Source: Gnetum montanum
Lineage: Eukaryota > Plantae > Gnetophyta
DNA length: 64,000 nt
Assembly: GCA_015680685.1 (NCBI GenBank)
Contig: MNCI01002140.1
Location: forward strand, 127,797 to 191,796
Reading direction: 5' to 3'
The position numbers were made by a program, and so were the translations under genes. The notes beneath the pieces are model-generated. The model did no database searches. It was given only the letters and a program-made list of their open reading frames with translations, and had not been told where the DNA came from. Below are positions 34,754 through 64,000 of the stretch, in pieces (position 1 is the stretch's first letter; every line of letters starts with the position of its first letter).

Positions 34754-34773
34754 ACTATGCTCAACGGCCGATA

Positions 34774-37660: not shown

Positions 37661-37671
37661 GACTACATCAA

Positions 37672-39149: not shown

Positions 39150-39440
39150 GAAAATGGCGCTAGAAGGAGGGCCTCTCATTGCTTAAATATACTCTAATCC
39201 ACCATAGATCTCTTCAAATCCGCTAGTCCATCTCATAGATCTGCTCCTTGTGATCCTAGATCTACAATCGATTTTCTCAAATTTAGACACTGTCAGCATA
39301 GATCTGATTTTGAACCTTTTAGATCTGCGCCCTGTTCAGCCAGATATGCTGTAATCTTAGCGTGTATATGCTTCCTAGCCTATCTGCACATTGTCCAATC
39401 TGCATGCTATCCACTCAGTCTGCACGCTGCCAGACTTAGG

Positions 39441-39652
39441 TGTACGCTGTGTAGACAAGCCTACACATTGAGGGTGTATGCTGTGTAGACAAGCCTGCAC
39501 GTTGAGGGTGTACGCCGATTAGAAAAGCCTGCACGTTGAAGGTGTACGCTGTGTAGACAAGCCTGCACGTTGAAGGTGTACGCTATGTAGACAAGCCTGC
39601 ACGCTGAGGGTGTACGCTGTGTAGACAAGCCTGCACACTAAGGGTGTATGCT
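39441..39652 (+). repeat. 34-bp tandem repeat, ~6 copies, in the leader of G
   Basis: Unit TGTACGCTGTGTAGACAAGCCTGCACGTTGAGGG. Confidence 0.9.
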
Positions 39653-39746
39653 AACAAGTATACCCATTTTGTACTTGGCCAAATTTTCACCTGTACACGC
39701 TGACACTGTCTTCCATATACCTTGTTATACTTAGGACCTTTTCATC

Positions 39747-41680
39747 ATGAATACTGCCAATACCAATGTTTCAAGAAAGCCCACTTCAGATATCCTTAGC
39801 CCCACAGCAATGCTAATACCCATCATACAACCCATAGGGGCCCATGGTGAGGTCAACCCTTGGGGGGAACCTCACCGATCTCTTAGATTGCAAGGGAAGA
39901 ATCCATCATTTAATGTCATAACATAAGAACAGTATAATTTTATATGTGTAAAGATCCAAGCTGGTTTGGTAGTAGATCAAACTGAACAGGAGGCTAAGAA
40001 ATAGTATGAACTGATTCATAAGGGAGAACATGAGTTCATCCCCTCCCCATATGACATCATCCCTTTTCCAGAGCACTACTCTGAGCTCATCTCACAGTTC
40101 CTAGTAAGGAGTCAGTCTCTGGACCAGTCCATAGTAAATCCTCAATTAGAAGAGGAGGATGACTTTGCGGCTTAGTCCGAACACGAGGATTCGTACCATA
40201 CTCTCAGTCCGCATACTTACGTGAACCCATTATTTCACCCTTTCACAAGGGAGACTATGTTCCTCCATTCATTTAAAATCACGCAAGCACATGTACCTCA
40301 ACAGGAAGCATCCACTCTTATTCCCACTCTCCCTGTGACCGATACTCAATTCAATATACCCATCCCCACTATTCCTCCCATCACCATGTTACCCCCTCTC
40401 TTACAAGCACAACCCCAACAACACCCCCCCTCAAGCTAATGTAGGAATGACCTTCCCACCCCAAGTGATTGGGATGTCGTCTGTGATACCTGCTTCTACA
40501 TCTGCTCACTATATACCACGAATTCAAACCCAAGGGACATCCTTCACCACTTCAACTCAATAAGTTCAGGGTGTTCCCTCACAAATCATGACTGGACAGT
40601 GGGCTATGACTGGCATGCAACCACATCAACCCCCTCATTACAACATACCACCTCCTACAATTCCACCCATGAACATCCCTCAAGTACAACAGCAACAATA
40701 ACAACAACCCTTTCCTTACAGTATGCCACCCTTAGTAGCACCTACCATGAATATTCCACAAGCGCAACCTCCAACCACTCAACTTTCTTCTTTCCCGCCC
40801 ATCGCACAACAATCTAACTTCCATACTACACAACATAACCAACCTGCCATTTCACCTGGCGCCCAAGACTGGGACAAAGCTAAAAGGATAATGCAAGAAC
40901 TCACTGATGAGGTAAGATACCTTAAAATGGCCAACAATGAAGAACTTAAAGTATTAGACTTTTACCAAGATGATCCTATTAGCTCTTCAGTGCCACCATT
41001 AACCCTGCCCAAAGGAGTTTCTTTGCCTCAACTAACCAAATACAACGGGGAAGGAGATCCCAATGCCCATTTGGTCACATTTAGACTAGAATGTTTATTG
41101 CTTCAGGCATGGCCCCATGCAATCTTACGTGTTTTCGCCATGTCCCTCACTGGCAGAGCATTAGATTGGTACCGAGCCTTGCCTCATAACTCCGTATCCT
41201 CTTTGGAGGATCTCTTACATTAGTTCGTTACCAGGTTTAAATACAACCTGAAACCTGAAGCAACCTTGGATAGTCTAATACAGGTTAAACAAGCACTGCT
41301 TAAACCAATACAGAAATTTATTCAGAGATGGAGTGCTGCGCTAAACAAACTTCATGAACCAATCCCCAAAACATACTTACTCACCATCCTAAAGGGAGCT
41401 GTAAATGATTTCATGAAATCTAAACTATACTATTTAAATGTGCACACTCTAAGCCAATCTTTCGTGCAAATAAAGAACATAGAAGAGGCGGCCCAAAATA
41501 GCCATGATCCTACTTACTTAGTCTTTAAAAATCAACATACTAAAAAAGACAAAGAAAAGGCTAAGGAAATAGTAGTAGCAGTAGTAGAAACTCAACAAAC
41601 AAGTACGAGGCAACAAGGTAAACCACCTACTGCCCCTACTAGCTATACTAGACCTGGCCCCAATACTACACCTAGACTGT
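39747..41680 (+). pseudogene. gag of G (F-like), truncated
   Basis: Highly similar to 47600-49380 (LKVLDFYQDDP..KYNGEGDPNAHL..). Confidence 0.85.
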
Positions 41681-41689
41681 CCACATCAC

Positions 41690-42007
41690 AAAATGAACAA
41701 TGAGTCGTGGACCATCGACCTCGACTCAATAGAGGAAGAGCGTGCACAGACACTGAGACACATAGAGCACTACCAGAGCAAGCAACAGCAAAAGCACCAT
41801 GCAGACCTGCATCGACAGCCAGTACAGAAAGGAGACCTCATCCTCAAGGCTGTCCACGAGCATGTGAGAAAATTCTTAGCCAACTAGGAAGGCCCTTACA
41901 TGGTCACCAAAGCCTTTGGAAATGGAGCCTTCAAGCTGGTGGATATGGATGACAATGAGTTTGCCAACCTGGTGAATCACTCGTACCTCAAGCTGTACTA
42001 GATCTGA
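41690..42007 (+). pseudogene. Integrase C-terminal remnant (GPY/F region)
   Basis: DLDSIEEER..KGDLILK..N*EGPYMV..GNGAFKL..NHSYLKLY, collinear with 57650-57960. Confidence 0.85.
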
Positions 42008-42028
42008 AGCATGGCAGCACCCACCAAT

Positions 42029-42341
42029 GTCCACTACGATGTTAAACTGGCAACAACACCTAGCACCATCCGCTATGATGTTAAACTAGCAACAACCTCG
42101 AGCAGCGTCCACAACGACGTTAAACTAACAACAACAAGCAACATCTGCTATGACGTTAAACTGGCAACAACCGTTTGCTATGACATAAAACTAGCACAGC
42201 TAGTCTGCTATGACTATAAATTGGCACGACACATCCGCTATGATGTTAAACTAGAATGTACGGTCCACTGGGACCTTAAACCATCATGGTAGTCTGTTGG
42301 GACTCTAAACCAGCACATGGTCTACCAAGACCTTAAACTGG
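42029..42341 (+). repeat. Motif array, 10 copies of a ~24-bp motif with 4-15 nt variable spacers
   Basis: Consensus GTCCGCTATGACGTTAAACTRGCA, starting 21 nt after the integrase stop. Confidence 0.9.
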
Positions 42342-43392
42342 GTTCTCTTTACATCCCTAGCATGCATCTACGCCAAGTACGCATCGAATGAGCATGTACG
42401 GTGCTGATGTGTGGGTGGGACATTGCAACTCTAGGATACAGTTCATGATGCAATGGGAACATAATCTAGAACACACATGATGCCACCACCCTTGGCATCA
42501 TCCTGACCCTCTAGAGATGTCGTATGGCATCACACTAGCCCTCTAGACCTACCGTTGTCATGACCCACTGCCCTAATGGTAGTTCCTTGGCTAGTTCCTG
42601 CAGTTGGTGTTCCAGCAGTATTGTGACCTAGCCACAATATTGTTATCCTCCAACTCCATGCCAACACCTTGGCTCGCTCGATGTTTAGCTATGTGGTGGC
42701 CGATCCCATAGCTGAACTGTGAATGCATGCTGTTGGCAGGGATTCTAGAGCATCTGCACTTATAACAACTCTCGACGCCTTCGAGGCCAGCTCCTCCACG
42801 CCGATACTACCAAGGCCACTACTAGCCTTCTTGCTTTGGACACCTTGTGCCAACGTGGATGTCCAAGAGCTTCAACAACGTCTGCAGCAAGTAAGACTCC
42901 TACCCTCACTTCGCATCTCACTCTCTGTTGTGCTTATAGGGTGCGATCGAGAGTACAACTCGCTATAGTAGCAAACGAAAGTGAGTGCCTCGACTAGCCT
43001 GGCTACTTCAGGGTGCAAGTTCCATGACATGCATAATGTAGCTCGTCACATGAGAAGCATCTACAAGCAGGTTAAAATCCCTCGGATGTAACGCAGCTCA
43101 TCCTGGGAAAGGAACACCTGTCCTACAAAGGGTCGAAGGTCAGTGAAGGTAAAGATGGAAACGCAAATAAGTCCCTCATGAGCACTCTGATGAGGGACTT
43201 TGCTAAAAACCATCTTTACCCTTCTCCTAAACCTCATTCCTCCCTACTTCATCCTTTCACTTTTAAGCACAGCCAAGCGACATCCCAGCAGTCACCAAGC
43301 GACAACATCGGCATCATGTCTTTGGTGGTGTTTCGCTTTCTTTGTCAATTTCTCTCAAGCCCATCCTCCAGAAATCGACAAAGAGGGGCCAA

Positions 43393-44872
43393 TGAAACAA
43401 CCCAAAATTTGAAGACATTCTTGCTTCACCAGGCCTTCGTAATTCGTGCAACATTACGACAGTTCTTCAGAAGATGGATGCTCTAATTTTCAAACTATCC
43501 ACTTCAACAAGTTTTCTAAGTTAAGGAGCCTTTCTACGCTACGCTACACCATGTAGCATAGAAAAATTCAGAAGACATTTGCAGAAGCGCAATGCTACAC
43601 TATGCTATGCAATGTAGCATAGCATAGCAAAAGCTGGATGACCAGTCCCCTCGCTTGACTTCAAGTCCTTCAGCAATGTCTCCTTTTGTCAGAAAGCGAC
43701 GAACTTGGCCGACATTAGGTCATGTTTGCTACTACGCTATGCTTAGCTACATGGCACAACGAAGCGTAGAAATTCTGTGAAAGTTGATAGGAGGCAACTC
43801 AAAGGGTGAAATCAGCAAGTTCGCAAGTTCCATAGTGCAAAAATGCAAATTTTACAGATTGGTGACATTTTTGCAACTAAGGCCAGTCGCTATGCTACGT
43901 AGCGTACCGTAGCATAGCACACATGCTATGAACAGCCTACACATTTCAAAGGCTTTCTACACATGCAACAAGACACGTAACAAGATGCTATACTACGCCA
44001 ACATGCTATGCTACAAAGCATAGTAAAGTGGCAAGTGGTTACGTGACATTAATGCACCTCACCTAATTGCACCGTTGCTCTGACAATGTAATTACGATGC
44101 GGCAGGCCCGTAATTATAGCGTGGTAGGCTCGCCCGATGGTCATACAGGCACGTGTAGCATAGACAGGTCAGCATAGGCCCAAGGCACGTGGCGTTCAAA
44201 CCACATCTTCCATGCGTCCTTGGTCCTATAAATACTCCAATGAGTGACACTTAAACTCTCCCTAGCTCTCTCTCTCCGATCCTTTTTCGCATGATCCTCT
44301 GGTTCGCCCTCTGAAAAATTTTGGCTCTCTAGCATTCTCTGGCATTGTAAGCTTTCTGTTTAGACATTGTAAACAGTTAGCATTCTCAGTTGGCATTTAA
44401 TTCTGTTCTTTTCTACCACCTTGGTAGAACTTCGCATTGTTAACACCGAAGTCCACGTTCGAGCACACAACCCTCTTGCTCTACACGTCTTGGTTACTCT
44501 CGAGATCTCTACACTTCCCAACGTTGTGCAACCGATTGTATCCATCCTGACAGAGCGAGGTCATAGCTTCGAAGTGGTGCACTTTTCTAATTGCATTTCT
44601 ACATTATCTCTTGTTTACTATTGCATTTTAACTTGTTTCCTATTTCTTTTGCATTTAAACATTACTTCGAGCTACCAATCTCACTTTCAAATCACACGTT
44701 GCAAAAGGTTATATAGACATTGACTAAGTCCCTGTCTGATCGTCTAGACCATTCAGGGTGCCCCGTTTTCATTCCATCCATCACGGCCCTCCCATGGAGA
44801 TAGGGTCAAGACTACCTAGCGGCCTACAGTCCCTCGGCGTTTTTCCAGCCGCTGATGTTTTTGGTCGCTACA
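43393..44872 (+). repeat. 3' LTR of E (1480 bp)
   Basis: TGAAAC...GCTACA; PPT 43380-43392; TATA CTATAAATA ~44226; TSD follows. Confidence 0.9.
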
Positions 44873-45096
44873 CCCCTCACTTCTACATATCCTACCTACT
44901 TGCACTTTCTTTGTGCATTTACATTTTCCTTGGTTGTTTTCATTTTGCATTATTTACTTTATTGCGCATTTGTTTCTTTTGTTGGTGCATTTTTCTTAGT
45001 TTACGTCTTATTTATTTTAGTAGTTATTAGCTTCCTTATGAAAAAAATTAAAATACATAGAAATCATAAAATTTGAAAATTCCAAAAAAATACATG

Positions 45097-45300
45097 GCCC
45101 ACCATGGCCTAAAACTAGCAATCTCCCTTGCATCACATCACCCAAAATGGTCCTAAATTAGCACATGATCCACCATGGCTCTAAACTGGCATCGCACATC
45201 CTGCCATGACCTAAAACTAGAGATACTTCTCCTTTCAATGCATGGTCCAAAATGAACTAAAACTAGTAATCACGTGACCCGAAATGTCCTTAAACTAGCA
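45097..45300 (+). repeat. Motif array, 6 copies, in the D2 spacer downstream of gag-PR
   Basis: e.g. GCCCACCATGGCCTAAAACTAGCA and ACCCAAAATGGTCCTAAATTAGCA. Confidence 0.8.
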
Positions 45301-45512
45301 TCAACTCATAGTGGCCTAGTCGCATCAAATTCATTGCATTATTAGCAATGAAACACATAATAAATAAACACAAAATTCTACACATCATACAATCCATATA
45401 GCAAAATGTCCATTTCATCTCATAGAAGTAACAATACATAGCATGATCATCTGTACCATATAGCAAAAAATACACAAGAATGCAAAAATGTCCAATAGTA
45501 GGGCTACATCAG

Positions 45513-46833
45513 TGAAACACCACAAAATTTTGGCCTAACACTTTCAAACAAAATTCAAGCTAAGCCATGTTGTTGCCCAACATAAGTACAACATGACCAA
45601 ATTTGAGAGTCTCCAAAACGGCATGGAATGACATTCAATGGAGCAAGCAAGGTCCCCCTGGGACCCATAGGCAACTACACCAGTTTTTGGCATCTAGAAT
45701 CAAAGGTTTCGAGCTCAAAATACTTTGTCTTCACTGGGCACACTTTGGTTACATTTTCTTACGCTGCACAGCGTAAGGCTTAGCGTCACCAACTTTGGAG
45801 CCCCGAAACTGAGCCAAAACAAGCCAAAATTGAGCACAAGGTCCCCAGCCCTCAGAATCCTGATTTCGGGCTCAAAAATACACTATTTTCACTACTCATG
45901 CCCAACTCATGCTCACACCCAGGTCACATCCAACTCACGCCCAGCTCATGCTGACAGCGTGAGCTACCAAAAATGGCCTAGAACATATCAGATGCATGTT
46001 GAAAACACACCAAGGCAAGATCTAGCAGCTGATCCAAGCGAGCTGGAATCAAATTTTGAATTCATTTTTAATGTTCATTGTAAGATTCGCAATTTGTAAA
46101 TTTTCCAAGCTCTTATGCTGCTTCCATGGGCGTAAGATAGCTTGCGTTGTAAGATACAGTGCACCCGGTCTAGAACGTAGTTTGCCCATGTACACCTGTC
46201 ATGCGATCCATTTTTCTTTCATCTCATAGCTGTTGATCTAATTCATTCCTATGCCCAAGAGAAGTAGATAAATACCCTATTCAAACACATAAAAGGGGTT
46301 GGCAAATGTTGGCAGAAATTTAGCAAGAAACCAACAATCCTGAGCCCGGACACACATGATTCCCAGCGCCTGCAAACACCACGCATCAGGGCTTGACTTC
46401 TGACTTGCAACGCAACTACATTTTGACCAGTGCACATTTTTGTCAATTAATAAAATACAGTTTCATTTTTGCCATTCGTTGCCTTGTTTTGATTTATTTT
46501 CTGCATTTTCCATTCCATTGCATCTTCCTGCGTACATTTTGTTTACGTTTACATCCTGTTACGTTCATTATGCTCAGTTACATTCATTACGCTCTATTAT
46601 TTTTGTTACGCTATGTTAGTTTCTCTATTTTATGCTTGTGACGATAACCCTAGCACAGGCAATAACGTACGCTTGGGGAAGTCCTTGGTTGATCTGCGTG
46701 CAGACCATCCAAGGCACTCTGCCTTCATTTTTCCAGCGTGCCCTCACGTGAAGGCAGGGTCGTCTATATCTCTCCGGAGATCTTTCGACGTTTTTTTCCT
46801 TCCAGCCTTATGCCGATGATTTCGGACAGTACA
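45513..46833 (+). repeat. 5' LTR of F
   Basis: TGAAACAC...CAGTACA; collinear with 59368-60728. Confidence 0.95.
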
Positions 46834-46838
46834 GAAAT

Positions 46839-46854
46839 TGGCACTAGAAGGAGG
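46839..46854 (+). promoter_or_regulatory. Primer-binding site of F
   Basis: TGGCACTAGAAGGAGG, 5 nt after the LTR; same motif at 39155 and 29663. Confidence 0.8.
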
Positions 46855-46982
46855 ACTTCTTCTTTCCATTTGAAAAACCCTTAGTCACCCCGCGCTTCGA
46901 AACGTTGCACAGATCAAGCGCTAAAATCAAAAACCTTATTCACGCTGAACCTGTTCTTGCTAAACTTTCTCATGTTGTAGAT

Positions 46983-47520
46983 TTTTACTCACGCTGAGCT
47001 TGGTTACGCTCAGACCAATTTTACTCACGCTGAGCCTGGTTACACTCAGGCCAGTTTTATTCATGCTGAGCTTGGTTACGCTCAGGCTAGTTTTACTCAC
47101 ACTGAGCTTGGTTACGCTCAAGCCATTTTTACTCATGCTGAGCTTGGTTACACGTAGACTAGTTTCACTCACACTGAGCCTGGTTACGCTCAGACCAATT
47201 TTACTCACGCTGAGCCTGGTTACACTCAGGCCCGTTTTATTCACGCTGAGCTTGGTTACGCTCAGGCTAGTTTTACTCATGCTAAGCTTGGTTACACTCA
47301 GACCAGTTTTACTCATGCTAAGCCTAGTTACGCTTAGACCAGTTTACTCACACTGAGCCTGGTTACGCTCAGACCAATTTTACTCACGCTGGGCCTGGTT
47401 ACGCTCAGACCAATTTTACTCACGCTGAGCTTGGTTACGCTCAGGCTAGTTTTACTCATGCTAAGCTTGGTTACACTCAGACCAGTTTTACTTACACTGA
47501 GCCTGGTTATCCTTAGCCCA
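46983..47520 (+). repeat. 36-bp tandem repeat, ~15 copies, in the F leader
   Basis: Unit TTTTACTCACGCTGAGCTTGGTTACGCTCAGACCAA with internal inverted repeat CTGAGC-N8-GCTCAG. Confidence 0.95.
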
Positions 47521-47586
47521 ATCTGCTCAAGTTAGCCTTACATATGCTCCTTACATAAATTTAGCTAGTCAAACCAGTTATACACA

Positions 47587-50500
47587 TGGAAGCTTCCTAG
47601 ATCAAAGCAACATTGCCCATCTCTAACCTTAATGCTGAAATCCCAAATCCTGTGAGCACAACCGAATCCATAGTCGCCGTTGGAGAGATGAACCTTCAAG
47701 GACCAACTCGTCGGTCACTTAGGTTATAAGGCAAAGACCCCTCCTATATAGTTCTCACCTCAGAACAATACAATTTCATCTGTGTAAAGATCCAAGCCAA
47801 TTTACCCACTGATCGTGTAGAAATAGAAGCAAAAAGACATTTTGAGCTCATTTATAAGAGGGGCCACAAATTTATCCGTTATACCATACTCTCATGGGGA
47901 TTCATATCATACTCTCAGTCCACATACTTATGCGAATCCATTATTCTACCCTTTCATTGGGGAGACCATGTCTCTCCATTCATTTAAGACCACTCAAACA
48001 CACGTGCCCCAACAAGAAGTGTCTAGTCTTATTCCCACTCTTCCTATGATCAACTCCCAATTCACTATGCCCATCCCCACTATCCCTCCAATTACTACCT
48101 TACCCTCCCTCTTGCAAGTACAACCCCAACAAGCCCCCTCTCAAATTAATATGAGAGCAACTTTCCCATCCCAAATAATTGGGATGCCATCTGTCATACC
48201 TGCTACCACATCTACACACTTCATCCCACGAGTACAGGTTCATACCACACCCTTGGCTCCTCCAGTACAACACCAGGTACAAAGTCTCCATGCACAATCC
48301 ACAGTTGGGAAATGGCTTGCCCTTGTTGCTCAACAACAACAACAACCCACACCTTACGGTATGCCACCCTTAGTAGCATCCACTATAAATATGCCACAAG
48401 TGCAACCTCCGATCACTCAACAATCATCATTCCGACCAATTGTACAACAGTCTAATTTGTATGGCACTCAAACTAACCAACCTCCCCCTTTACCTAGTGC
48501 CCAAGACTGGGCTGAAGCTAAAAAAATGATGCAAGAGCTAGCCGACGAGGTAAAACGCCTCAAAACCACTAAGAATGAAGAGCTTAAAGTATTAGACTTT
48601 TACCAAGATGATCCTATTAGCTCTTTGGTATCACAGTTAACCTTACCCAAAGGAGTTTCNATACCAAAGAGCTAATAGGATCATCTTGGTAAAAGTCTAA
48701 TNCTTTGGTATCACAGTTAACCTTACCCAAAGGAGTTTCTTTGCCTCAATTAACCAAATACAATGGGGAAGGAGACCCTAATGCTCATCTAGTCACATTT
48801 AGACTAGAATGCTTGTTGCTTCAAGCTTGGCCCCATGCAATCTTGCATGTGTTTGCCATGTCCCTCACTAGTAGAGCATTAGACTGGTACTGAGCCTTGC
48901 CTCATAACTCCATATCCTCCTTGGAGGACCTCTTACACTAGTTCATTACTAGGTTTAAATACAACCTAAAACCTGAAGCAACCTTGGACAGTTTAATATA
49001 GGTGAAACAAGTGCCCCTTGAACTTGTACAAAAATTCATCCAAAGATGGAGTGCCGCACTCAATGAACTTCATGAGCCAATCCTAGAAACATACCTTCTT
49101 ACGATTCTTAAGGGAGCCATGAATGATTTCATCAAATCAAAACTATACTACCTAAATGCGTGCACTCTAAGCCAAGCTTTTGTATAGATTAAAAACATAG
49201 AAGAGGCAGCTCAAAATAGCCATGTCCCTGCCTACTTAGCCTTTAGAAATCAACACACTAAAAAGGATAAAGAAAAGGCTAAAGCAACAGTAGCAGTAGT
49301 AGCAGAGACTCAACCTCCCAACATGAAAGAGCAAGGCAGATCACCTACTGCTCCTGTTAACTACGAGAGAACTGCTCCTGCACATACAACTGAATCATCT
49401 TCCATGCAAGCTAATAACATAGGTCATACATGTACGTTCGAGAGGAAGGACCCCGCTCACTACACACCGCTCCCCATGAAGCCTTCTCAATTGTTAGATC
49501 AACTTTTGAAGGCTAGGGCCATTAAACATAAGCAGTTGTCCCTAGCGGCAGACCAGAGAAATGATCGATTCTGTCAATTGGCCCAAAACCCAAGCTTGGC
49601 AACTCCAAATGAGCCTCCTATTCCAAGAGGCTTTAGATTCGACGGAATGGGCATGGTACTGATTATTGTTTCACTCTCAAACAAGACATACAACGTATGA
49701 TTGATAGGGGTGAAGTAACATTTGATGATGCCAACCCAGTTAAACCGCAGAATCAATCTATGGATGTGTACATAGATCCCCTTAATACTAAGGAAGCTCC
49801 TTACATCATTAACACGATCAATATTGGAAATGAGCAAGGAATGCCCAGAAAACCGTTCGTGATTCATGTTCCTCCTACAGCATCAACATCATCCCCACAA
49901 TCTTCGTATCCCACATACAATCCGCCTACACCTACAAAACCATTCTTCGTTCGTGTACCCCCTGTCAATGCAACTGTAAATGTGCAACCGCCTACTCGGC
50001 CCACTCCCTTTGTGGTCCTGGTACCACCCACGGTCGCAACTACAGAGGTACAATTACAAAACCGACCAACTCCCTTCATGATTAGGGTACCCAAACACCC
50101 TGGTCTTCAAAATCCACCTCCTCAACCGCAAACCAAATCAACCCCATTTGTCATTAGGGTGCCTCAATGCCTTGACACATAATCATCTCCAACTGTTCAA
50201 CTGCAACCTTGACCTGCTCTATTCATCATTTGAGTCCCAAAACAACATGATGTTCAAGCTCCAACGGCTCCCCCACGACCTTCACGAGAACGTCTTGCTG
50301 ATAGACTCACTAGGGAACGGTTGGAAAAGGAACGTCGAAGTCTTGAATTGGGGCCACCAAAACCCACTCCCTTAAACGTTGTACCTATGGTTCCGACAAC
50401 TGATGAGTCGAGCATAAATCACAAAAGTAAAACATCAGGAATGCCAGATACGAAAAACCCAACTGTCACGTTAAACCACGTGAAAACCACTCCACAAGAG

Positions 50501-51549
50501 ATACAGCTATTGGGTCCAATGGACCAAGTCTCAATGAACATACCAAACAGTAAAGACTTAGCCAGTGCCCTAACTCAGGTCACACAGGCACTAAAACAAA
50601 AAAATACATCCTTAAGTCTGTATGATCTAGTGATGACTTCTCAGGTGCACCGTGAAGCCTTGGTATGAATGCTCACTTCGATCCAGGTTAGTGAGGACCT
50701 ACCTACCACTAAATCATCAATTCATGCAGTGATGTCTCCACAACAAAGATCAGGTTCCGCATCACTAGGCTTTCATCCCGAAAACATTAAAATAGATGAA
50801 AACATGGAAGAAATTACCACTGCCCCTATGTTCATAACCATTCAAGTAAACTAGTTTAAAATACATAGGGTGCATGTTGACGATGGGCAGCCACTAATGT
50901 AATACCTTTTCCCATCATCGAAAAATTAGGCCTCATGGAGCAGATTCACCCAACGGCAACAACGTTCCTAAAATCTCTTAGTGGGTCACGTGTCGTGGTT
51001 AAAGGCACAATCACTTTGGATTTCATAGCAGGGGACCGGTTCCCCACATCAGTTGAATTTGTAGTCGTAGACGAGATGCCTAGATTTAACTTGATATTGG
51101 GGCGACCATGGTTAGCCCAATTAAAAGAAGTTTCCTCACCCATCCACCAAGAGATTCACTTACCCTATGAAGGTGGTGAAATCATCATACATGGTGATAT
51201 GGCTACACTCAACACCTTAGCACACGTAGGCACAAACCAATGCTTAGAGGTTGAAATCGATGAGACTAAACAAGATGACATTACCCTCAAGCTTAAATAA
51301 GACGCCACGCCCATGGGAAACCAAGGTGATAACCAATCCCCAAACCGTGATCCCTTGGAAGATATAGAAACATCACAAAACATGGAAACATCAGGACACA
51401 CTAACATAGGGGTCATTCCCCCAAATGTCTCATGGTCAGAATTACCATTTAACATAATTAGCGAAGGAGATGTCGAATATACAATTACACCGACATGCCC
51501 AACACGTCATGTCAATCTGCGAAAATTAAAGAAGTTACTCAACCATTAA
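47587..51549 (+). pseudogene. gag-protease of F
   Basis: P/Q-rich N-terminus, gag core KYNGEGDPNAHL..RALDWY, protease VHVDDG..TNVI and FNLILGRPWL; stops and frameshifts; ends TAA 51547-51549. Start approximate. Confidence 0.9.
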
Positions 51550-51559
51550 ACAACTACTC

Positions 51560-51745
51560 GTCCGAAATGACGTTAAACTACTACTTGTCCGAAATGACGC
51601 TAAACTACTATCTTCCGAAATGACGTTAAACTAATACTCGTCCGAAATTATGCTAAACTATTATCGTTCGAAATGACACTAAACTACTATTGTCCGAAAT
51701 GACATTAAACTACTACCATGTCCACAATGACATAAAACTAGCCAC
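51560..51745 (+). repeat. Motif array, 7 x ~26 bp, directly after the gag-PR stop
   Basis: GTCCGAAATGACGTTAAACTACTA units; three more dispersed copies at 51829, 52108 and 52138. Confidence 0.9.
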
Positions 51746-54519
51746 AGTCATAAAACTAGCCACGGTCAAAAATGGCAGGTTCATTTTAAAACCCACCAAA
51801 ATAGTTTATATCTCTCTTGTTTCTTGTGGCCCAAAATGGCCTTAAACTAGAATAAGTTACGCTTCTTCTTAATTAAAATTATATTCTAGTTTGCATGCAT
51901 AGTTGCATCCCTGCTTTACAAATTACCGTGTCCCTCACATTTCTTCTACACTATTATCACTTTAGTTGCATCCACGCTTATATTTACAAATAGTTAAGAC
52001 AACAAAACAACAAAAAATTATATAATAATAATAATAATAAGGAAAATAATAATAAACTTTTGCCAAAAACAACTACAGTCTCTTCTTCCTTTGACAAAGA
52101 TACGATAGTTCATCATGACTTTAAACTGACGTGTCTAGCCTGAAATGGCTTTAAACTAGAACACAGCATACCACCAATTTACCGAAATTGTGCTACATTA
52201 TTATCATTTACGTTTTGCTCGACATAGTTACAGTTTACATTTACGTTCACAAGGAAGCTTGAAAAGTAAAACATGAATATACAAATACATGTAATACGGA
52301 GTGTTAGCACAAAAAAAAAAGAGTAACTTCATATTATACCATGATCATGTTACATTTGTTTTCACATATTCCAAAATCAACAAAAAAGGGGTACATGATA
52401 ACAAACTAGACAAGAAATGACAAGGTTGACAAGAACACCAAGCTAAATCGTGCACTAGTGTTAGGAGGGGGCTAGTCCCCAAATTCATCCACATCATCGA
52501 GTCCCACTCCACTGGGGCCAGCCTCATCATCAACACGTCCCTGCACCAAAACAAAATCCTAGGTAAGTAAGTTAAAATTTGTGAAACAAACAAATGAAAA
52601 TAACCATCAACAAAACATAAATATACAAGAGAGAATTAGCAAGAGAAATAATAATAAGATGAATAACTACAAAAGTTGTATGTCCCATGGGACAATAACT
52701 CTAGCATTTGTTCGGTACGTTTAATCCTGAATGGGGAACATGGAATCTATTAGGTAACACCAACATCAAAAGGATAACGTTTGCAAATATTATTAGTTTA
52801 TGTTACAATAGGCATCATGACCTCACGCTGATTACTTGCTTGGACCAAAATGGGTTGCCATTGCCTAGCATGATAATTCAATTAATCATGGATAGTACAA
52901 TAGTCATTAGTAACAAAAACACTAAAAAATAAAAAATAAAAAAAATAAAAACAAAAAAACGATTAAGTTAATAAACACAAATCAAACAACTTAAAACAAC
53001 AAAAGAACTAATAATAATAATAATAATAATAAATCAACACTAGTCATGATGAGGGGGGAAGTAAAAACAAAGCACCGTGAACTTGCATATGGCCACTGGC
53101 CATGTGCTGGTGGGATTCGTTGCTTTTTTAAGCAAACAGATTTTAAAATAGTAAACAAGCATCCATTCATCATCATGTTCATGACTCATGAACCATGACA
53201 ATGAGCCTGTTTTGTCTTTTTCTTTTTTCAGCGGAAATAAATAAATAAATAAATAAAAAGGGGGGAGTTACATATAATAAATACTTCATATACCCTCCTA
53301 TTGGTTTTGTACTATATTACTTGCCGGTTTTGAGCGCAGATAATACGTGGTTTTAATGCTTTCTTTTTTTTTTCAAGCATATTGATACATGTCAAACGCA
53401 GGGGCATTAAACACAAAAGGATTCAAGCTTAGTGATTGACACAGGTACTGTTGACGAATGGCGGCGTTGTCGATTAACGCGTGACAATCAATCTCAAACG
53501 CCGTTTGTACTTTTGTTTTGAGTCTGCAGCAGAAATATAAAACAAAAGCAGCAGAAATATAAAACAAAAATAGCAAAAAACCAGCAATTAAAAATATATA
53601 TATATATATATATAATAATGCGTGAATGTGTGAGTTATGAAACCTTTGGTGCTCCCAAAGGCAGGCCGATCCACGCAAATGCAACGTTTTCTTCGCACGC
53701 CTCGCCCAAAGACTCACGCTGAAGACGGCAGGTAGCTCACGCTCCAAAACGGCGGCTAACTCACGCTGCAGACGGTGGCTGACTCACGCTGTGAAATGGC
53801 AGCTGACTCACACTGCAATACCTTGAATACTGTTATAGCAGCGATTTGGTGTCTGAATACATTTCAATTCATAGAATAACCCATAAACACTATAAAATTT
53901 TAGCACTAGTGTCGGTTATTGGTAGCGATCAACAAAGCCGATGTTGGCTAAAAGAATTATTCATGTTGCTCACGCTGCCCAGGGCCAGTTATTCACGCTG
54001 TCTAAGGCAATTCACGCTGCCAAGCAAAAGTTTGCAAAAATGCACGAAAAAAAAATACAGTTCCGACAACATATGCTTACGCTCGGGCAAAAATATAGGA
54101 AAATCGCAGTAAAAAATGCACAAAAAAAATTGCAGTTCGCGCAAGTCACATATGAAATGCAGTGAAATACCCTGCAACTAATGTTGGTCCTCCCAACCCA
54201 AAACGCAGCCAACAATGCTCGAAACATGGCAGTCCTGCTACCCACGCTATGTCCCTGCTACCCATGCCACGTTACCTGCCTTGTTGCTCACGCTACCACG
54301 TTATGTCCCTGTAACTCACGCTACCCTATGTAACTCACGTTGCACTCAGTTAGTCACGCTATTTTTTTTTTTTTAATTCCTTTAGCATGTTAGTTCATCT
54401 TATTTCTCTTCTCTTCTATTTTTTTTTTTTTTTGAGAGAATGTTCGGGTTTGTATTGCTGAAAGTTATGGTACACGAGTATACAATTACAAAGGGGGACA
54501 ATTACACGAGTATATCAAT

Positions 54520-57500
54520 GGATCACATGGGGCCATTCAACAAGAAGTCAATCTAGAATCCATTGATCTAGATTCATCATCAATTTCTGACAATTTTGTG
54601 GCATCCACTCAAGGAACACCAGACTACCTAAGAGATATGACTAAAACTTTGGACTTAGAAACAGACACCATCATTGAGGACCCCATCGTCGAAGTCCCCA
54701 TCACCATGTCTAGTGGTGAGGTTAAAACATTAAAACTAAGTACTCTACTAGATCCGCAAATTGCCAATGACATTACACAAGTGCTAAAGAATAATATCAA
54801 AACATTTGCTTAGTCATATACCGATATGCCAGGGTTGGACCCTCGCATCAACCAGCATAACATCATCCTCGATGAAAAACTTAGACCAGTAAAGCAAAAT
54901 GCACAAAAAGTTAGGCTTGAGGTAGCGTTGGCAGTTCGTAATGAAATCACGAAGCTCTATCAAGCCGGTTTCATCCGAGCTGTTGACTATGCCGATTGGG
55001 TATCCAACATTCTTGTAGTCCCTAAGAAGAACAGCAGCATTCGCATATGTATTGACTTCCGTGACCTCAACGTAGCCACTATAAAGGATGACTTCTCGCT
55101 ACCCAGTATCGACCAACTCGTTGACTCAACCACTGGGCATGCATTATTATCCTTTATGGATGGATTCTCGGGATACAACCAAATCAGGATCAACCCAGAA
55201 CACCAACTCAGGATGACCTTCATGACACCTTGGGGCACGTTCTGTTATACAATGATGTCATTCGATCTCAAAAACGCGGGTGCCACATATCAACGGGCAA
55301 TGACATATATATTTAGCTATTACATGCTTGATTTGCTCAATGATTATGTAGAAGACATCACAGTCAAGTCCAAAACAACCGAAGAACATGCAAAGCATTT
55401 AGACTTGGTACTCAAACATTGTCTCAAATACGACCTTAGGCTTAACCCAAAGAAATGCGTCTTTGGAGTTAAGACAGGAAAAATGCTTGGCTTCATAGTC
55501 TCTGAGATAGGAATACGAGTAGACCCCGATAAGGTTAAAGCAATAACTAGCATGCAACCACCTAGGAACCTTACCGAATTACGTGGTCTGGAAGGTAGAC
55601 TGCAATTCATCAGACGCTTGATCACAAAACTAACAGATAAGCTGAAACCCATGTAGCACGTGCTACGAAAGAACGTCCATTTTCAGTGGACTCAATAGTG
55701 CCAAGAAGCCTTTGAAAGCATAAAGATGGAATTGGCTCAATTGCCAATGGTTCATCCCCCACAAAGCAACAAACCTTTTTACATCTACCTCGTGACATCC
55801 GATACATCTATTGCATTCATGCTTTGCCAAAAATGAGAAGATGGAGCCGAGATCCCCGTTTACTATTTAAGTCACGCCTTGGTTGCCCACAAACAATGAT
55901 ACAACGACGTGGAGAGATCATGCTTCACCCTTGTCTTTTCCTTGAAAAATTGGCGGCATTACCTCTTCTGCAACCAAGTTAATATCATTTGCAAAGATAG
56001 CGTGCTTCGAGCTATCACCAACAACATCTATGAATCAAGTAGGTTAGCTAGATGGAAGGCGATGATTGCAGAGTTTGTCCTGCATTATGTTGCCCAATCC
56101 TCTACTAAGGGTCAAGCAATAGCCAATCAGTTGACCGCATCATCAACACGAGGTCAAACAACGATCAACCTTGAATTCCCCGACGAAGACATTAACAACA
56201 TAGACGTAGTGCCCGATAACTATGATGCCATCCTGTACTTTGACGAAGCATTCACCTCCCGAGGTGGAAGTGCTGCAACCATCATAACGTATCCCTCGAA
56301 AGAAATTCGCCCCTTTGCCTATCGACTAAACTTCCCTTCCACCAAAAATGTGGCAAAGTATGAAGGTCTTCTTAGAGGTCTTATAGCGGCACTAACTTTG
56401 GGAATCACACGTCTTGTAGTTCAAGGTGACTCACATTTCGTAGTTAATCAAGTCACAAAGATCTACGCATGTAAAGCCCTGCATCTGCAACCATACTGTG
56501 ACATGACTTAACACTTGTTAAAACGATTGATCAACGTAGACGTGCAACATATTCCTAGGAATGAAAATACCATTGCAGATGCACTTGCCATAATAGCCCT
56601 GAACATGACACCTGAGATGCTCCATGTGTTGCCTAGTTCTATAACAAATTGTGCCAAACTTGTGACCAACGCCCTTGATGAAATACCCATAGCGTCCGTC
56701 AGCACTACATAAGCAATAGAGTGGTACGACAGCATAAAAGAGTATCTTCTACGAGGCGAACCGCCACAACATCTGACGAGTGCTCAAAAGGATGCGATGC
56801 GAAAATGCTCTAGGCAATATGCATTAATAGGAGACACCTTGTGTCGCAAGTCCTATGAAGGCATCCTGTTGACATGCGTCAGTAGCATTGATGGCCAAAT
56901 GATCATAGAACAGGTTCACGAAGGACTATGCGGAGGGCATATAGCACCCAAAGCAATGGCAATGAAAATTAGACATTTAGGCTATTACTGGCCACACATG
57001 GAGTACGAATGCTTCTCCAGGGTCAGGAAATGCAACATTTGCCAAAGACACGGTAACCTAATACACGTACCACCTAATGAGTTGCATACTGCGCAAATCA
57101 CATGGTCATTCCAAAAATGGGGATTAGACATCATTGGCCCTATAACACCACCATCCTTAGCAGGACATAGCTTCATCATCATTGCGACCGAATACTTCAC
57201 AAAATGGGTAGAAGCTATTCCTCTTAGGAAAACCATGTCTAAATATGTCTGCAACTTCATATTGGAAAACATCGTGACATGCTTTGGTATCCCAATGACT
57301 ATAGTCACCAATAATGGGCCACAGTTTAGTAGTACGGATACTAAAAACTTCTGCGAAAGCCTAGGTATTAAATACTCGTTTTCATCACCTTATTACCCAC
57401 AGAGCAATGGCCAAGCGGAATCTACGAATAAAACGATCATCATGGTGCTCAAGAAAATGCTAAATCAGAGCAAAATAGGATGGCACGAGTAGTTAATCTA

Positions 57501-57960
57501 TGCACTATGGGCATACCGAACAACACACCAAACGTCCACAGGTAAAACACCATATAGCCTAGTATACGGATCTGAAGCTGTCTTACCTTTAGAGTTACAG
57601 GTTCCCTCGTTGCGAATGATGCTCTCTAGTCTTCTCGATGAAAGCCAGAACAATGAACTGCGCATCGCTGATCTTGACTCGGTGGAGGAAGAAAGGGTAC
57701 ACGCACTTGATCAAATCGAATGGTACCAGAGACAACAACGACAATGTCATCAACATGATCCACATAAGCAGCCGATCAAGGAAGGTGACCTAGTTCTCAA
57801 GGCGGTCCGCGAACACTCAGATAAATTCTCAGCCAACTAGGAAGGACCTTAATTAGTCACTAAAGCCTATGACAATGGGGCATTCAAGCTCGCCAACTTG
57901 GACAGAAACGAATTGGCCAATCCTACGAATCACATGTACTTGAAACCATTCTACGTCTAA
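54520..57960 (+). pseudogene. pol of F: RT, RNase H, archaeal-type RNase H, integrase
   Basis: RT 54826-55656 (CIDFRDLN, FMDGFSGYNQI, YVED); RH ~55770-56150; aRH LYFDE..KYEGL..GDSHFVVNQV ~56230-56600; INT HHCC (HEGLCGGH..CNIC), WGLDII, PQSNGQAE; several stops and frameshifts. Confidence 0.95.
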
Positions 57961-57980
57961 TGATCCCAAGGTACATAACG

Positions 57981-58286
57981 GTCCTGGCATGACGACCTAA
58001 AACTAAAACCACAGAACAATCCCAGAGCTATGACTTAAAACTAGCACCACAGAATGTCCTGGCATCATGACAATAAACTGACATCACAGAGCTCTGTCCA
58101 ACATGACACTAAACTGTCACATTCATTCACCAAAGTCCACTAAGACTATAAATTGGCTAGCCTCTTCATAGTCCGCCACGACTATAAACTAGTATGGCAC
58201 TGTCTGCTACGACGCTAAACTAGCAACGTCCAACGGGTTATGACATAAAAGTAATCCACAAAAGTCCGCCAAGACTATAAACTGGA
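57981..58286 (+). repeat. Motif array, 9 copies with variable spacers, directly after the integrase stop
   Basis: e.g. GTCCGCCACGACTATAAACTAG and GTCTGCTACGACGCTAAACTAGCA; starts 20 nt after the TAA ending at 57960. Confidence 0.9.
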
Positions 58287-59367
58287 AACTTCTTCACTGG
58301 CCTACCAATCTGTGGCTGAAATCAAAAGGCATGTCATCATCAACCTGCTCAATGAATTCATCACATGGACTCCAAAAATATTGCTACTGCTCAATCTTGT
58401 TTGCCTATGGTTGCACGTGGTATTCCATCCCATCAGTTGCATCCATGTTAAAGTGTTAAGCTAACTCATTCGCTTGTGTTTTTTCTTGTCTTCTTGGAGT
58501 TGTGTTTACAGGACGATACCTAGAGGTGTTCATACACAGATACACTTCATCAAGGCAATGAGGTACCACATTGTTCCTAATGCATGTAACCAGGTTAATC
58601 AAACTATTGACAAGTACATTCCCAGTTCCCCGAATGTCCCTCATTCCCTAGCATGTTCTCTCTACTATGTTCAATTACACCCCCTTTGATACATCCCATT
58701 CATCCCCAAAATTCTGCACGCGTTGTTGCTCACTGTAACTCTACAACCAATGGCAACACAAAACGATGCATAGCACATGACAAAAACATGAGTACAAAAC
58801 TAACAGCAAGCTCTTTCCAAAAACAAAAAACAAAAAGCAAAAAAAAAAATAAAGAAAGACTCAAAGAACAAAATCCATCACAAGACCCATTGACACTTCC
58901 CATATAAGCCCCAGGAGAGAAGGTAAATGTCTTGGAAGAAAACATTCATGTCTCAAACAATCATGTTGCATCCCACCATGTGGCTTTGGTTGTGACAACG
59001 AGTTCTCTTAAATAGGATACAAGAGTCTCGTTTCTCCAAAGGACACATATCCCATGCCTTGGTTCCAAGTCCGCTAGATATTGGCTATTGACAAGGACCA
59101 ACATGAAGTGTCCACACAAAAGCATTCCTCTTCCCATAGTTAAACAAAATCATCCCTTCATCAATCCCTGATCTCATAGTAACACACCTTCTCCCTATGC
59201 ATCTCAAAACCTCATTTCCCAATCCCATGTACTTCTGAGCACAGTGCGATGACATTTGGCCAAGTACCGACAGACAATGCTTGGTACTTGATCATTCATG
59301 GTGTTTTGTACTTCTTTGTCGACGCTTCTCAGGTAGATTCCTCTACATGTCAACAAAGAGGGGCCAA

Positions 59368-60728
59368 TGAAACACTGCAAAATTTTGGCCTAACACTTTC
59401 AAAAAAAATTCAAGCTAAGCCATGCTGTTGCCCAACATAAGTACAACATGACCAAATTTGAGAGTCTCCAAAATGGCATGGAATGACATTCAATGGAGCA
59501 AGCAAGGTCCCCTTGGGACCCACAGGAAACTACACCAGTTTTTGGCATCTAGAATCAAATGTTTCGAGCTCAAAATATTTTGTCTTCGCTGGGTACACTT
59601 TGGTTACATTTTCATATGCTGCACAGCGTAAGGCTTAGCGTCACCAACTTTTGGAGCCCCAAAATTGAGCCAAAATAGGCCAAAATTGAGCACAAGAACC
59701 CCCCATGACCTCCACTAATGGTTGCCCAAGGTCCCCAGCCTTCAGAATCCTAATTTCGGGCTAAAAAATATACTTTTTTCACTGCTCACGCCCAAGTCAC
59801 GGCCAACTCATGCCCAGGTCACACCCAACTCATGCTGACAGCGTGAGCCCAGTGTCAGCTACCAAAAATGGCCCAGAACATATCAGACGCATGTCAAAAA
59901 CACATCAAGGCAAGATCTAGTAGCTGATCCAAGCGAGCCGGAATCAAATTTTGAATTCATTGTTAATGTTCATTGTAATATTCGCAATTTGTGAATTTCC
60001 CAAGCTCTTACGTTGCTTCCATGGGCATAAGATAGCTTGCATTGTAAGATACAGTGCACCCGTTCTAGAACGTAGTTTGCCCATGTACACCTATCATGTG
60101 ATCCTTTTTTCTTGCATCTTGCAGCCGCTAAACTGATTCATTCCTACATCCAAGACAAGTAGATAAATACCCTGTTCAAACACATAAACGGGGTTAGCAA
60201 ATGTTGGCAGAAATTTAGCAAGAAACCAGCAATCTTGAGCCTGGATGCATGTGATTCCCAACGCCTGCAAACACCACGCATCAGGGCTTGACTTCTGACC
60301 TACAACGCAACTACATTTTGACTGGTGCACGTTTTTGTCAATTAATACAATACAGTTTCATTTTTTCCATTCGTTGCCTTGTTCTGATTTATTTTCTGCA
60401 TTTTCCATTCCATTGCATCTTGCTGCGTACATTCTGCTTATGTTTACATCCTGTTACGTTCATTACGCTCAATTACATTCATTACGCTCTGTTATTTTTG
60501 TTACGCTCTGTTATTTTCTCTGTTTTACGCTTATGACTATAACCCCAGCGCAGGCAATAGTGTATACTTGGGGAAGTCCTTGGTTGATCTGCGTGTGGAC
60601 CATCCAAGGCACTCTACCTTCATTTTTCTAGCATGCCCTCACATGAAGGTAGGGTCGTCTGTATCTCTCCGGAGATCTTTCGGTGTTCATTTCCTTCCAG
60701 CCTTACGTTGACGATTTTGGATAGTACA
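59368..60728 (+). repeat. 3' LTR of F
   Basis: Follows PPT AAAGAGGGGCCAA; has a ~30-bp segment (~59697-59728) absent from the 5' LTR. Confidence 0.95.
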
Positions 60729-60740
60729 ATTAGGATATGC

Positions 60741-63700
60741 TTAACCAATAGTACTAGGAGGGGGTGGTGGTCCTCCTTCCTCTACTACACCGCTAAGGCC
60801 TATAGCATCACCTAGTGCCTATTAACAACAATAAAAAACTTACAAGAAAATGTACAATATACAAACTAACATCAAAAGCATAAAAGAAATACAAAAAACT
60901 AACCTGAGAGGGTCCTGCATTGATCATGTCTAGAGATAAGCTATCAAGGCCCTCCTCTAAGCATTGGAGGATCTTGGCCTTAGATAGCTGCATCTAGTCC
61001 TCCTAGCCAAAGTCAACTCCTACAAGGGTCTTGCCTTTGTCCATTGTGGTCCATACAGGTGGCTTCATGGAAATTGTAGCAAATGAAGCCTCTCTTAAGG
61101 GCATGAAAATCTACCTCTCCAGAGAACCACTAACCACTATATGAAAAGAAAATATCTCAAAGGTCCATCTCCTACCAGTCACCTCAAGAAAAATCTCATG
61201 GCAATGACATTTGATAGACTCTTCCTTGAGTTGCTAAAGATATGCATCTCACTTGTGCTTATAGTGGTGTTTGTGGTTCTTTTGTGTCTACCCCCACTTG
61301 CATACCTTGGCACTAAGATTCTTCCAATTCTAATTTTTTTCCGTAAGCAGATGCATCTATAACCATTGCACATTGATCTCTTAGGTGGCCTCATTCTTGC
61401 CCTAGATGGTCAACCAGTACCTAGCATAATCAATCTTTGTGGTCTTCCAGGTACTATCTCCCTATGACCAAGCTGCTAAGAAGTCATATTAGGACTGTAG
61501 GTCCTCAATCTTTGTGTCTTGACTCATCACCTGAAGTTCATGAACATGTTTCCACAAGTGCTTGTTCAAGCACCTGCAAACCCATAATGCTTTTGCACAA
61601 GAAAGAATGCATTTACTAACTACCTTGTATATAAGACAAGGTACTTGCTCCACTTTAGGAGGGAACTCCGGTATGGCATCTACTTTAACCACCCTACTTA
61701 GATCTTAGTGAAGCTTAGAACCTGTTGGCATATAACAAGTAGATCAACCTTAGCCATAGACTAAGCATTAAATGGGTAAAGCAACATCATATGCATTCCA
61801 AGCTCAAGATCCACCTGCTGGAGGTAGTTTACTATGTCCTTAGCAATGCCTTTAATGAAGGAAAACTTGTTTGGTGTTTCTACCCATGGATTCATGTGGT
61901 AGGTAGACGTGGATGGTGAACTGTTAGCAGGCTCATCTTAGGCTGCAACACAACAATGTAATAAGTAAAAACTAAACAATCAAAGATGTTAGAGCAAAAG
62001 AGCAATGACGGATAGTAATCTAAGGCAATTACCTAGTAAGCCCTCAGGTGTGAGAGTAGGGGGTCCCCCAGCTACACACCATCAAAGAGGCTAGTAATTG
62101 GGGGTGAAATAGCCCCTCCACCTTCAACTACTAGAGGGTCTCTATGGCCTCATTCAACTCCTCCTTATGTGCTTCCCTCCTCAATTCAAGGAGGGGCCAC
62201 CTATACTACTATTGTTACTGCTACTTCAGTAGCCCTCTCTCCTAATTTACAAAATAGCATGTTAGCATTAGTATAACATAGCAAAAATCATAAAGAATAT
62301 AAACATAAAAAATACAAAATAAATGCATCTAGCAATATACAAATACTAACATGCAACCTCTGTGCATCAGTTGGGGATCTTAAGATGAATCTTCTTGGTG
62401 CCTACCCATCCAACCTTAGGAGCGGCCTCCTCTATTGGGCATGGCCTTTTAATCTTTTCCTTGGATGGTCCCACCATTTCTACAATATATCAGTTAGCCT
62501 TGTTTACATCCCCAATAACAACTAGGGGACACTCACCTATGTTGTCACGTGAATAATGTGATCACCCCAAGAGACCTTTGGTTGTCACTGAGTATGACTC
62601 ATTGATCCACTCTGGGGGGTCTTGCATGTGAGTGGTTTTAAACATGTGCTTAATCCAAGGCTTAGACAGCTACTCATAGTCCTACACAATCCATTGCCCA
62701 CTATCTTGAACCACCAAGAGATCTACGAACCTTCACAAATACCCTATGAAGAATGTGAAGTGTACATGGAACTTCCCTTAGAGGTTGAAGTATAGCTTGG
62801 TGTCTCTTCATGTAGGCTAGTGGTGATGTAAGAGTCCTAGTTGAACCTCATGCCCTTCTACAAAACCTCCTTCATCATCCATGACTACTCAACTTCAAGG
62901 ATTTTTCCTTGGGAGAGCAACTTTAGGAAGGAACGGGCACGAAAGAGAGGGTAGAGCTCCTAGACCTCAAGCATATGCACATTTTTAATTAGGATTCCCT
63001 TGTGAGATCAAGTGTTTTCCAACTAGCCCTCGATCTCTCCTTTGTGGTCCACCATCCTATTGGCCTTGTCAATTACCAATAAGCCTTCAGTGGAAAGGCC
63101 AAAAAGGTCAATGAAGAAGGCCTCGTTGAGGTCCAAAACTACCCTAACACCGTGCACATGGATGATAAAGTGGCAGATATTACTGCTAAATGAGTCTATG
63201 ATGGTGACCGTTTTGGCCACCAGAATGCTTTAGCTAAGGGCCAAAAAAAGGTTCATCAACCCAACACATGTGAGCCAACTGGTCAATGCCTTTGAGGCCT
63301 AGTGGCATAACCAATGTTATACCCCCTCTACATCACCATATTTCATGATAAGGATGGCCTCAGTGGAGCCTGTGGCGACCACCATCACCTCTCGTGAAGC
63401 AACTATAGTTAAAAAAAAGGTAAAAAAATGTTAACATCATGAAAAGGCAAAAGGAAAATCAAAAAGCATATATGTGAGAAATCATAAGAGCCAAAATAGT
63501 AAACACTTACGTGGAACAAATGGTGTGCGAGATGGAGGTGGTGGTGCAATAACCTCTTCAAGGTTGAGCTCACCACTAGCCCACTACTCATCAAGCCAAT
63601 CATGGAACTTGCATTACTTGAACACTCTTAGATACTAGGTAGGGTAATCCATTAGATTAGTTCCCAACTACTTAAGAACAACCTCCCAAAGATTCAAACT

Positions 63701-63790
63701 AGGGGAGAACACTTTTAGGGTAGTACGAATCAAGGCAAGAGCCTCTACCTCTTCATGGAGACCCTACTTGTCAACTTTGAATCTATCATT
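60741..63790 (-). pseudogene. Spliced antisense accessory gene in the D2 PR-RT spacer (plant mobile/transposon-protein-like N-terminal domain, DKGK and poly-P tail)
   Basis: Four minus-strand GT-AG U-rich introns (63403-63510, 62242-62350, 61943-62032, 60819-60903); HFII..LDLNEAFFIDLFGLSTEG motif; last junction reads AGPSQ|ALGDAIGLSGVVEEGGPPPPPSTIG*; many stops. The 5' end is uncertain. Confidence 0.65.
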
Positions 63791-64000
63791 AGGCATGAGC
63801 AATTAACAAACTTAGCATGAGCTAGTAGCAAAGGAATACAACACAAAAAACCATAAGAGCACTTAACCCTCCGGTGTAGTATACTGTTCTAGGTGGATTT
63901 TGGAATAAATTATGCATGCGTAGAGAAACAAAGAGGGTGTTGCTCTTTTTGTAGCAAGAGAACTCTAGAATTTTCAAAATCCTAGATAAGGGTCAAGCAC

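Follow-up and report, generated by a model that had tools for sequence, protein, structure and literature searches.

A probable six-exon antisense gene behind gag-protease in an Ogre-like Tat retrotransposon family of Gnetum montanum

A 64-kb stretch of Gnetum montanum DNA (64,000 nt; hereafter the window) probably contains, on its minus strand, a six-exon accessory gene of an Ogre-like Tat family that lies right behind gag and protease (PR), likely inside an enlarged PR-RT intron. The gene has five introns, and its exons total ~2700 nt, or ~900 codons (Table 1). The window is plant-type repeat DNA, strongly depleted in CpG and with a single N gap, and from 27 kb onward it is filled by a nest of related Tat elements. 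The relevant members are an older element (D1), the element to which we assign the gene (D2), and two inserts in D2 (E and F), of which F serves as a complete sister element.

Table 1. Positions of the antisense gene and of the Tat elements around it (window coordinates).
Feature	Position	Strand	Remarks
D1 RT fragment (older element)	27400-27966		interrupted at ~27966 by D2 5' LTR
D2 5' LTR	27967..29657	+	start approximate, resembles F LTR start; inserted in D1 RT
D2 PBS, decayed	~29663-29678		directly after D2 5' LTR
D2 gag, protease and post-protease extension, decayed	30400..33922	+	protein-level collinearity with F gag-PR
Insert E, composite with nested element G	33928..44872	+	TSD 33923-33927 and 44873-44877
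D2 spacer behind PR	44878..45507	+	630 nt, AT-rich, short tandem repeats; 3' UTR side of antisense gene
Insert F, complete Tat element	45513..60728	+	TSD 45508-45512 and 60729-60733
Remnant resembling the last exon, T-rich intron and CAG acceptor included, in F PR-RT gap	52439..52650	-	same orientation as D2 gene
Candidate sense 3' splice acceptor ahead of F pol frame	54360..54439	+	pyrimidine tract and AG
Exon 6	60741..60818	-	acidic, proline-rich; stop at 60743-60741; adjoins spacer in family contigs
Intron 5, 85 nt	60819..60903	-	GTTAGT..TAG
Exon 5	60904..61942	-	frameshift near 61705; helical by eye
Intron 4, 90 nt	61943..62032	-	GTAATT..CAG
Exon 4	62033..62241	-	low-complexity, likely frameshifted
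Intron 3, 109 nt	62242..62350	-	GTTAGT..TAG
Exon 3	62351..63402	-	stops and at least one frameshift
Intron 2, 108 nt	63403..63510	-	GTAAGT..TAG
Exon 2	63511..63782	-
Intron 1, 85 nt	63783..63867	-	GTTAAG donor, CTAAT ahead of TAG, T 0.46; additional to the four of the first-pass annotation
Exon 1 with ATG at 63917, predicted	63868..63917	-	phase 2, compatible with exon 2

The T-rich GT-AG introns of the minus strand are real and exceed chance. Introns 2-5 have a T content of 0.49-0.61 and a GC content of 0.21-0.32, against 0.23-0.31 and 0.39-0.51 in the exons. The first-pass annotation had described four minus-strand introns of 85-109 nt, and all four stand at their coordinates with GT donors and YAG acceptors. 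A strict intron scan, the rule of which was fixed after the region had been viewed, recovers three of them on the minus strand and none on the plus strand. None of 500 dinucleotide shuffles, of 36 segments from elsewhere in the window or of 414 segments taken from related loci yielded two or more introns; among 500 local 20-nt shuffles, which keep the T islands, one yielded three. The same annotation had held that the junctions at introns 2 and 5 join plausible reading frames, and this agrees with our phases, which, with frames favoured by eye, fit across four of the five junctions; at the fifth, that of intron 4, the phase fits only with a frameshift in exon 4. A further GT-AG stretch of 50 nt (61623-61574) was rejected as an intron: reads cover it and one frame is open across it.

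The assignment of the gene to D2 follows from the layout of the nest. D2 shows a 5' LTR, the end of which aligns with the LTR ends of E and F and with the F PBS, and its gag-PR, LTR end and PBS link it to F. Gag similarity in D2 lies at 31182-31774, and the protease gives a weak Pfam match to Asp_protease_2 (E 0.24). E and F had been proposed to be removable at their target site duplications (TSDs), and the flanks bear this out: E lies between identical 5-bp copies (CCCCT/CCCCT) and F between copies that differ at one base (ATCAG/ATTAG). The right end of E, 44872, is an LTR end, and in other copies, seen in family contigs, PBS-like letters then follow. With both inserts removed at their TSDs, the PR extension of D2 runs into the 630-nt spacer and on into 60734-64000, so that the 3' end of the gene comes to lie ~640 nt behind the protease extension; we base the PR-to-spacer join of D2 on the E TSD and on the parallel layout of F. 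Only 83 nt of the window remain upstream of the ATG, and the RT side and 3' end of D2 fall beyond it. That D2 pol lies upstream of the gene start we infer indirectly, from the sister element F. An RT found past 64000 would be insufficient as proof of a D2 RT, because the remainder of the D1 RT must resume after the D2 3' LTR.

E is itself composite. Its 5' LTR (33928-34753) is without the last ~650 nt and the PBS and continues into repeats and a gag; the match between the 5' and 3' LTRs of E spans 826 nt only. Element G (37509-43392) has an LTR, an intact-looking PBS at ~39156 and a gag that jumps directly to the integrase end, PR, RT and RH being deleted.

The join between spacer and gene recurs in other copies. 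Contigs from four DNA runs (X1, X4, X6 and X7; three studies, three organism labels) were aligned to 44800-45590. Throughout its length the spacer occurs in many copies: the sites listed within 45369-45478 have 37-61 contigs in each run, apart from 45376 and 45415, which have 30-46. At 45512, 26 contigs in X1 and 27 in X6 have loose ends (two studies, of which that of X1 may be the window's own source), and in each run a count by eye gives 24 of 30 letters identical to window positions 60734-60763, around the 3' end of the last exon. This join was seen in two of the four runs (X1 and X6) among the 24 loose ends listed of 1368; the listed pieces of X4 and X7 likewise stop at 45496-45512. This uninterrupted passage from spacer to last exon, in 26 and 27 contigs, makes the join a feature of the family. 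The proposal of the first-pass annotation, a multi-exon antisense gene between protease and RT of a Tat element, is partly upheld: the gene is real, belongs to a multi-copy Tat family and lies directly behind PR.

Sister element F has the order gag-PR, a gap of ~3 kb, and RT-RH-aRH-INT (Pfam RVT_1, RT_RNaseH, RVT_3/RNase_H, rve), together with LTRs, PBS, PPT and a 5-bp TSD; its LTRs are 91% identical over 1310 columns. The second RNase H (aRH), the mark of the Tat clade, is present in F pol and lies between RH and INT, the placement that marks Ogre in PMC6317226. From PR motif to RT, F measures 3720 nt, whereas the median of related loci is 1175 nt (47 with the motif of 80 examined) and 44 of the 47 fall within 873-1701 nt; the gap of F is 2.5 kb longer than usual. 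These 80 loci, gathered by RT alignment, are distant (46-54%), and the antisense gene has no match in them (best E 0.66). Long PR-RT distances in three of the loci were read as single insertions or a wrong anchor: L028 is without a PR match, L068 has a reverse-strand fragment, and the gap of L036 is without a long ORF.

The F gap contains a minus-strand remnant that resembles the last exon of the D2 gene. Its peptide score of 45 was reached by 1 of 5000 shuffles, and it is the top non-self match in ~870 kb of six frames, with the next only 2 points lower; without the proline run it no longer ranks among the top 15, and DNA-level tests against local shuffles were not significant (101 and 207 of 300). 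The remnant, which is short and was identified post hoc, is suggestive of a gene between PR and RT. It follows repeats of the same type as those of the D2 spacer. The spacer tandem repeats match the post-integrase repeats of F (~57990-58290), those of G (~42015-42340) and the PR-RT gap of F with scores of 46, 54.5 and 52.5, respectively.

The split between gag-PR and pol in F may be of the Ogre type, with an acceptor-like tract before pol and no clear donor. This candidate acceptor tract is the most pyrimidine-rich 75 nt of the F internal region (0.83) and lies 380 nt before the RT anchor, a distance that ranges over 263-500 nt in 18 Ogre-like loci; behind PR, no convincing donor was seen on the sense strand. 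The same gap holds CpG-rich short-motif repeats (53700-54350) that resemble a 36-nt array in the F 5' UTR (46983-47538) and form a candidate promoter region, either for antisense transcription or for that of pol. A ribonucleotide-reductase match on the minus strand at 53376-53783 (136-codon frame, E 1.1e-4, below the cut-off) was set aside as AT-rich, low-complexity and probably noise. Elsewhere in F, gag carries a 46-nt inverted repeat (48586-48706; 98% complementary, 29-nt loop, one N) that is either a small inversion-duplication or an assembly error.

These features of F bear on the main rival explanation, in which D2 represents a non-autonomous family that lost pol, an RT-RH-INT deletion has brought the gene, an ordinary extra ORF of the 3' antisense kind, beside PR, and the long gap of F is of other origin or chimeric. 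We consider this account unlikely, but it is the strongest of the alternatives: no D2 RT is seen in the window, the spacer repeat type also occurs after integrase in F and G, G itself has such a deletion, and antisense ORFs lie 3' of pol in Tat lineages III and V and in Retand, as described in parts of PMC4408406 and PMC11963269. On the other hand, F is complete and moved as one unit, as its TSD and the identity of its LTRs indicate, with the last-exon-like remnant between PR and RT and an overlong gap. In the F 3' region no ORF of 100 codons was found, and no last-exon-like match ranked there.

Multi-intron genes are usual in DNA transposons. A second alternative assigns the gene to an independent element (a DNA transposon or an LTR element in reverse orientation) that inserted behind D2 PR and has its ends in 44878-45507 and beyond 64000. 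The intron number fits this alternative, as do a protein without a match in the databases searched and the absence of the PR-to-spacer join of other copies among the 24 listed of 1368 loose ends. A separate insertion was also what the first-pass annotation had named as speaking against its own reading, and the signs of one were sought. No LTR, PPT, TIR or long inverted repeat was found in spacer 44878-45507, the family contigs keep the spacer-to-last-exon join, and the spacer has the family's repeat type and many contigs along its length. In addition, methylation decay of the gene equals that of D2, with CpG/CHG depletion of 0.15/0.39 in the gene and 0.12/0.32 in D2 gag-PR, unlike F (0.43-0.92), which is younger than both; no transposase match was obtained. 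A separate element is therefore improbable, and we retain an antisense gene that belongs to D2.

This copy of the gene is dead. In the favoured frames, whose choice by eye is a bias, stops occur at 2.6-5.4 per 100 codons, comparable to D2's own gag (3.8) and PR (2.6), whereas the alternative frames have 6.0-14.1; in four of five segments the stops of the favoured frames are mostly TAG and TAA. Of 40 listed read differences, with 110 more beyond these, 24 were classified, and in the favoured frame they comprise 10 synonymous, 12 non-synonymous and 2 to stop, compared with 8/15 and 8/13 synonymous/non-synonymous in the two other frames, so that the favoured frame has no clear synonymous excess.

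The predicted product of ~900 residues has, by eye, an N-terminal globular part, a low-complexity middle and a helical C-terminal part. Exon 3 may bear a motif likeness to the plant mobile domain (PMD). The identity suggested by the first-pass annotation, PMD or plant transposon protein, did not emerge from the searches. Thirteen readings of four exons of this decayed copy, a query of low sensitivity, gave no Pfam match at E 1, be it to TRP28 (PF04195), PMD or transposase. A profile of 16 Ogre ORF1 (PMD/DUF7745) sequences, run on the window cut into 1278 six-frame pieces, had no match (best E ~1), and hhalign against PMD/DUF7745 returned a probability of 0.17, inside the range of 10 shuffles. 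Likewise, phmmer with 63790-62855 found no match among 1.84 billion representative proteins, a word search with exon 5, restricted to lengths of 146-468, left none of its 56 candidates at E 10, the PDB yielded no match (best E 0.95 and 0.08), and exon 3 had no relatives in metagenome contigs. Structure prediction, which had been proposed as a check, was of no help: the single-sequence fold is not confident (pLDDT 35). These blank protein searches weigh little, because the copy is decayed and even the RT of F has no relative above 58%.

A long helical ORF is present elsewhere in the window in two decayed plus-strand copies, 2-1768 and 9001-10770, that are 48% identical, each adjoining a related LTR of opposite orientation; the first copy is without a Pfam match. 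As a relative of exon 5, ORF 2-1768 was rejected (best E 5), and the pair is likely another accessory gene, unrelated to the antisense gene.

Transcription was assessed with four RNA runs of one species label, read to fractions of 2% (X10, X11) and 26% (X13, X14), in which 26, 14, 187 and 31 reads, respectively, fall on the gene. As 257 of these 258 reads are less than 95% alike, the RNA comes from other copies. The first mate lies on the plus strand for 95% of depth in X10 and 86% in X11, and in 22 of 25 and 14 of 17 covered bins; X13 and X14 show no one-way strand bias. Assuming the usual stranded protocols, related copies are probably transcribed at a low level from the strand of the gene. 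The reads of the highest RNA peak begin at two positions. In X10, three of the listed sites fall in intron 3 and have 1, 1 and 0 reads in the dominant direction, versus 6 each at three nearby exon sites; in the opposite direction the same three intron sites have 7, 8 and 7 reads. Junction reads, by which the first-pass annotation had proposed to confirm splicing, did not supply that confirmation: no splice joint is listed among the 258 reads, all from partly read runs and nearly all from related copies.

That the unit acts mainly as a spliced antisense regulatory RNA, its protein incidental or long lost, we find very improbable: it would suit the missing homologue and fold, the synonymous counts and the antisense RNA roles discussed in PMC7264820, but the phase-compatible junctions, the ATG, the terminal stop and frames as stop-poor as those of D2 gag and PR argue for a protein.

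By its RT, element F stands apart. The best database matches of the F RT (54814-55653) are 55-58% identical, the nearest named ones being from Ginkgo and Victoria, and no relatives were found in viral contigs. In an unrooted tree of 52 rows, which uses 51 of 120 matches and has neither reference elements nor an outgroup, the RTs of F and D1 form their own long branch (length 0.74).

Three known kinds of Tat element come nearest to this layout, each with differences. In Ogre (Tat lineage IV; pea and Medicago), Gag-PR is split from RT-RH-aRH-INT by a partly spliced non-coding gap, according to passages of PMC6317226 and PMC4408406, and F shares this domain order as well as the pyrimidine tract and AG at a matching distance before RT. 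However, the Ogre gap is without a gene and averages 274 bp (same partial source, PMC6317226), whereas that of F is ~3 kb; Ogre has its extra ORF 5' of gag, in sense and of the PMD/DUF7745 type, and none such was found in the window; and the F RT is as distant from its best matches as stated above. The Retand group (Grande, RIRE2, Retand) resembles D2 in having an antisense accessory gene beside tandem repeats. The Retand ORFs, however, lie between pol and the 3' LTR (PMC7264820 and PMC11963269, in the parts seen), are mostly TRP28 (PF04195) and are described as plain ORFs, whereas the D2 gene follows PR, has five introns and gives no TRP28 match. Tat lineages III and V carry an antisense PMD or PMD-coiled-coil ORF with an N-terminal domain and a helical C-terminal part (PMC4408406, in part), a composition like that predicted here, but their ORFs are at the 3' end and PMD was not detected in the D2 gene; in lineage III, moreover, the same excerpts place aRH after integrase, whereas in F it comes before.

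The first-pass annotation had not recognised the layout as described, and the literature searched gave no description of it either. An extra antisense gene in the PR-RT gap was absent from that literature, outside which lie Steinbauerova 2008/2011 and the supplements that could list such elements; the available parts of PMC9289625 and PMC6431247 contain no such layout. The extra ORFs of Tat elements are placed 3' antisense or 5' sense in PMC4408406, and a survey sorts extra ORFs into four classes by side (5' or 3') and orientation (forward or reverse) (PMC6317226). That survey restricted its search to uninterrupted ORFs of 250 codons on either side of the polyprotein, and because of this an intron-split gene in the PR-RT gap would have been missed. 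Plant LTR elements are generally intron-less, with Ogre and EVADE named as exceptions in the accessible part of PMC12786077, and a review calls for a search for antisense spliced transcripts (PMC7264820, likewise in part).

An enlarged Ogre-type intron would accommodate these features as follows. Unspliced genomic RNA would carry the gene backwards, and for this reason the gene's introns would be invisible to the spliceosome and would survive reverse transcription. Spliced sense RNA would skip the whole gap and join gag-PR to pol, as in legume Ogre. Transcription of the gene would start from a separate promoter, in the part of the gap nearest RT. For the product, our guess by analogy with Grande gene23, which has its own promoter and a nuclear product (excerpts of PMC7264820 and PMC11963269), is that it most likely regulates the element from within the nucleus. 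Going further, and here with doubt slightly outweighing confidence, we suggest an undescribed Tat lineage in which the Ogre PR-RT intron has grown into a cassette of several kb with a five-intron antisense gene encoding a new protein family. Such a cassette would form a nested two-way transcription unit, with sense splicing leading to pol and the opposite strand to a regulator.

The unusual feature here is the position of the gene. Should this layout be borne out, accessory genes have a third position besides those 5' and 3' of gag-pol; the layout would also show how a retroelement can retain introns through reverse transcription, and would link expression of an accessory gene to the splicing by which the Gag:Pol ratio is set.
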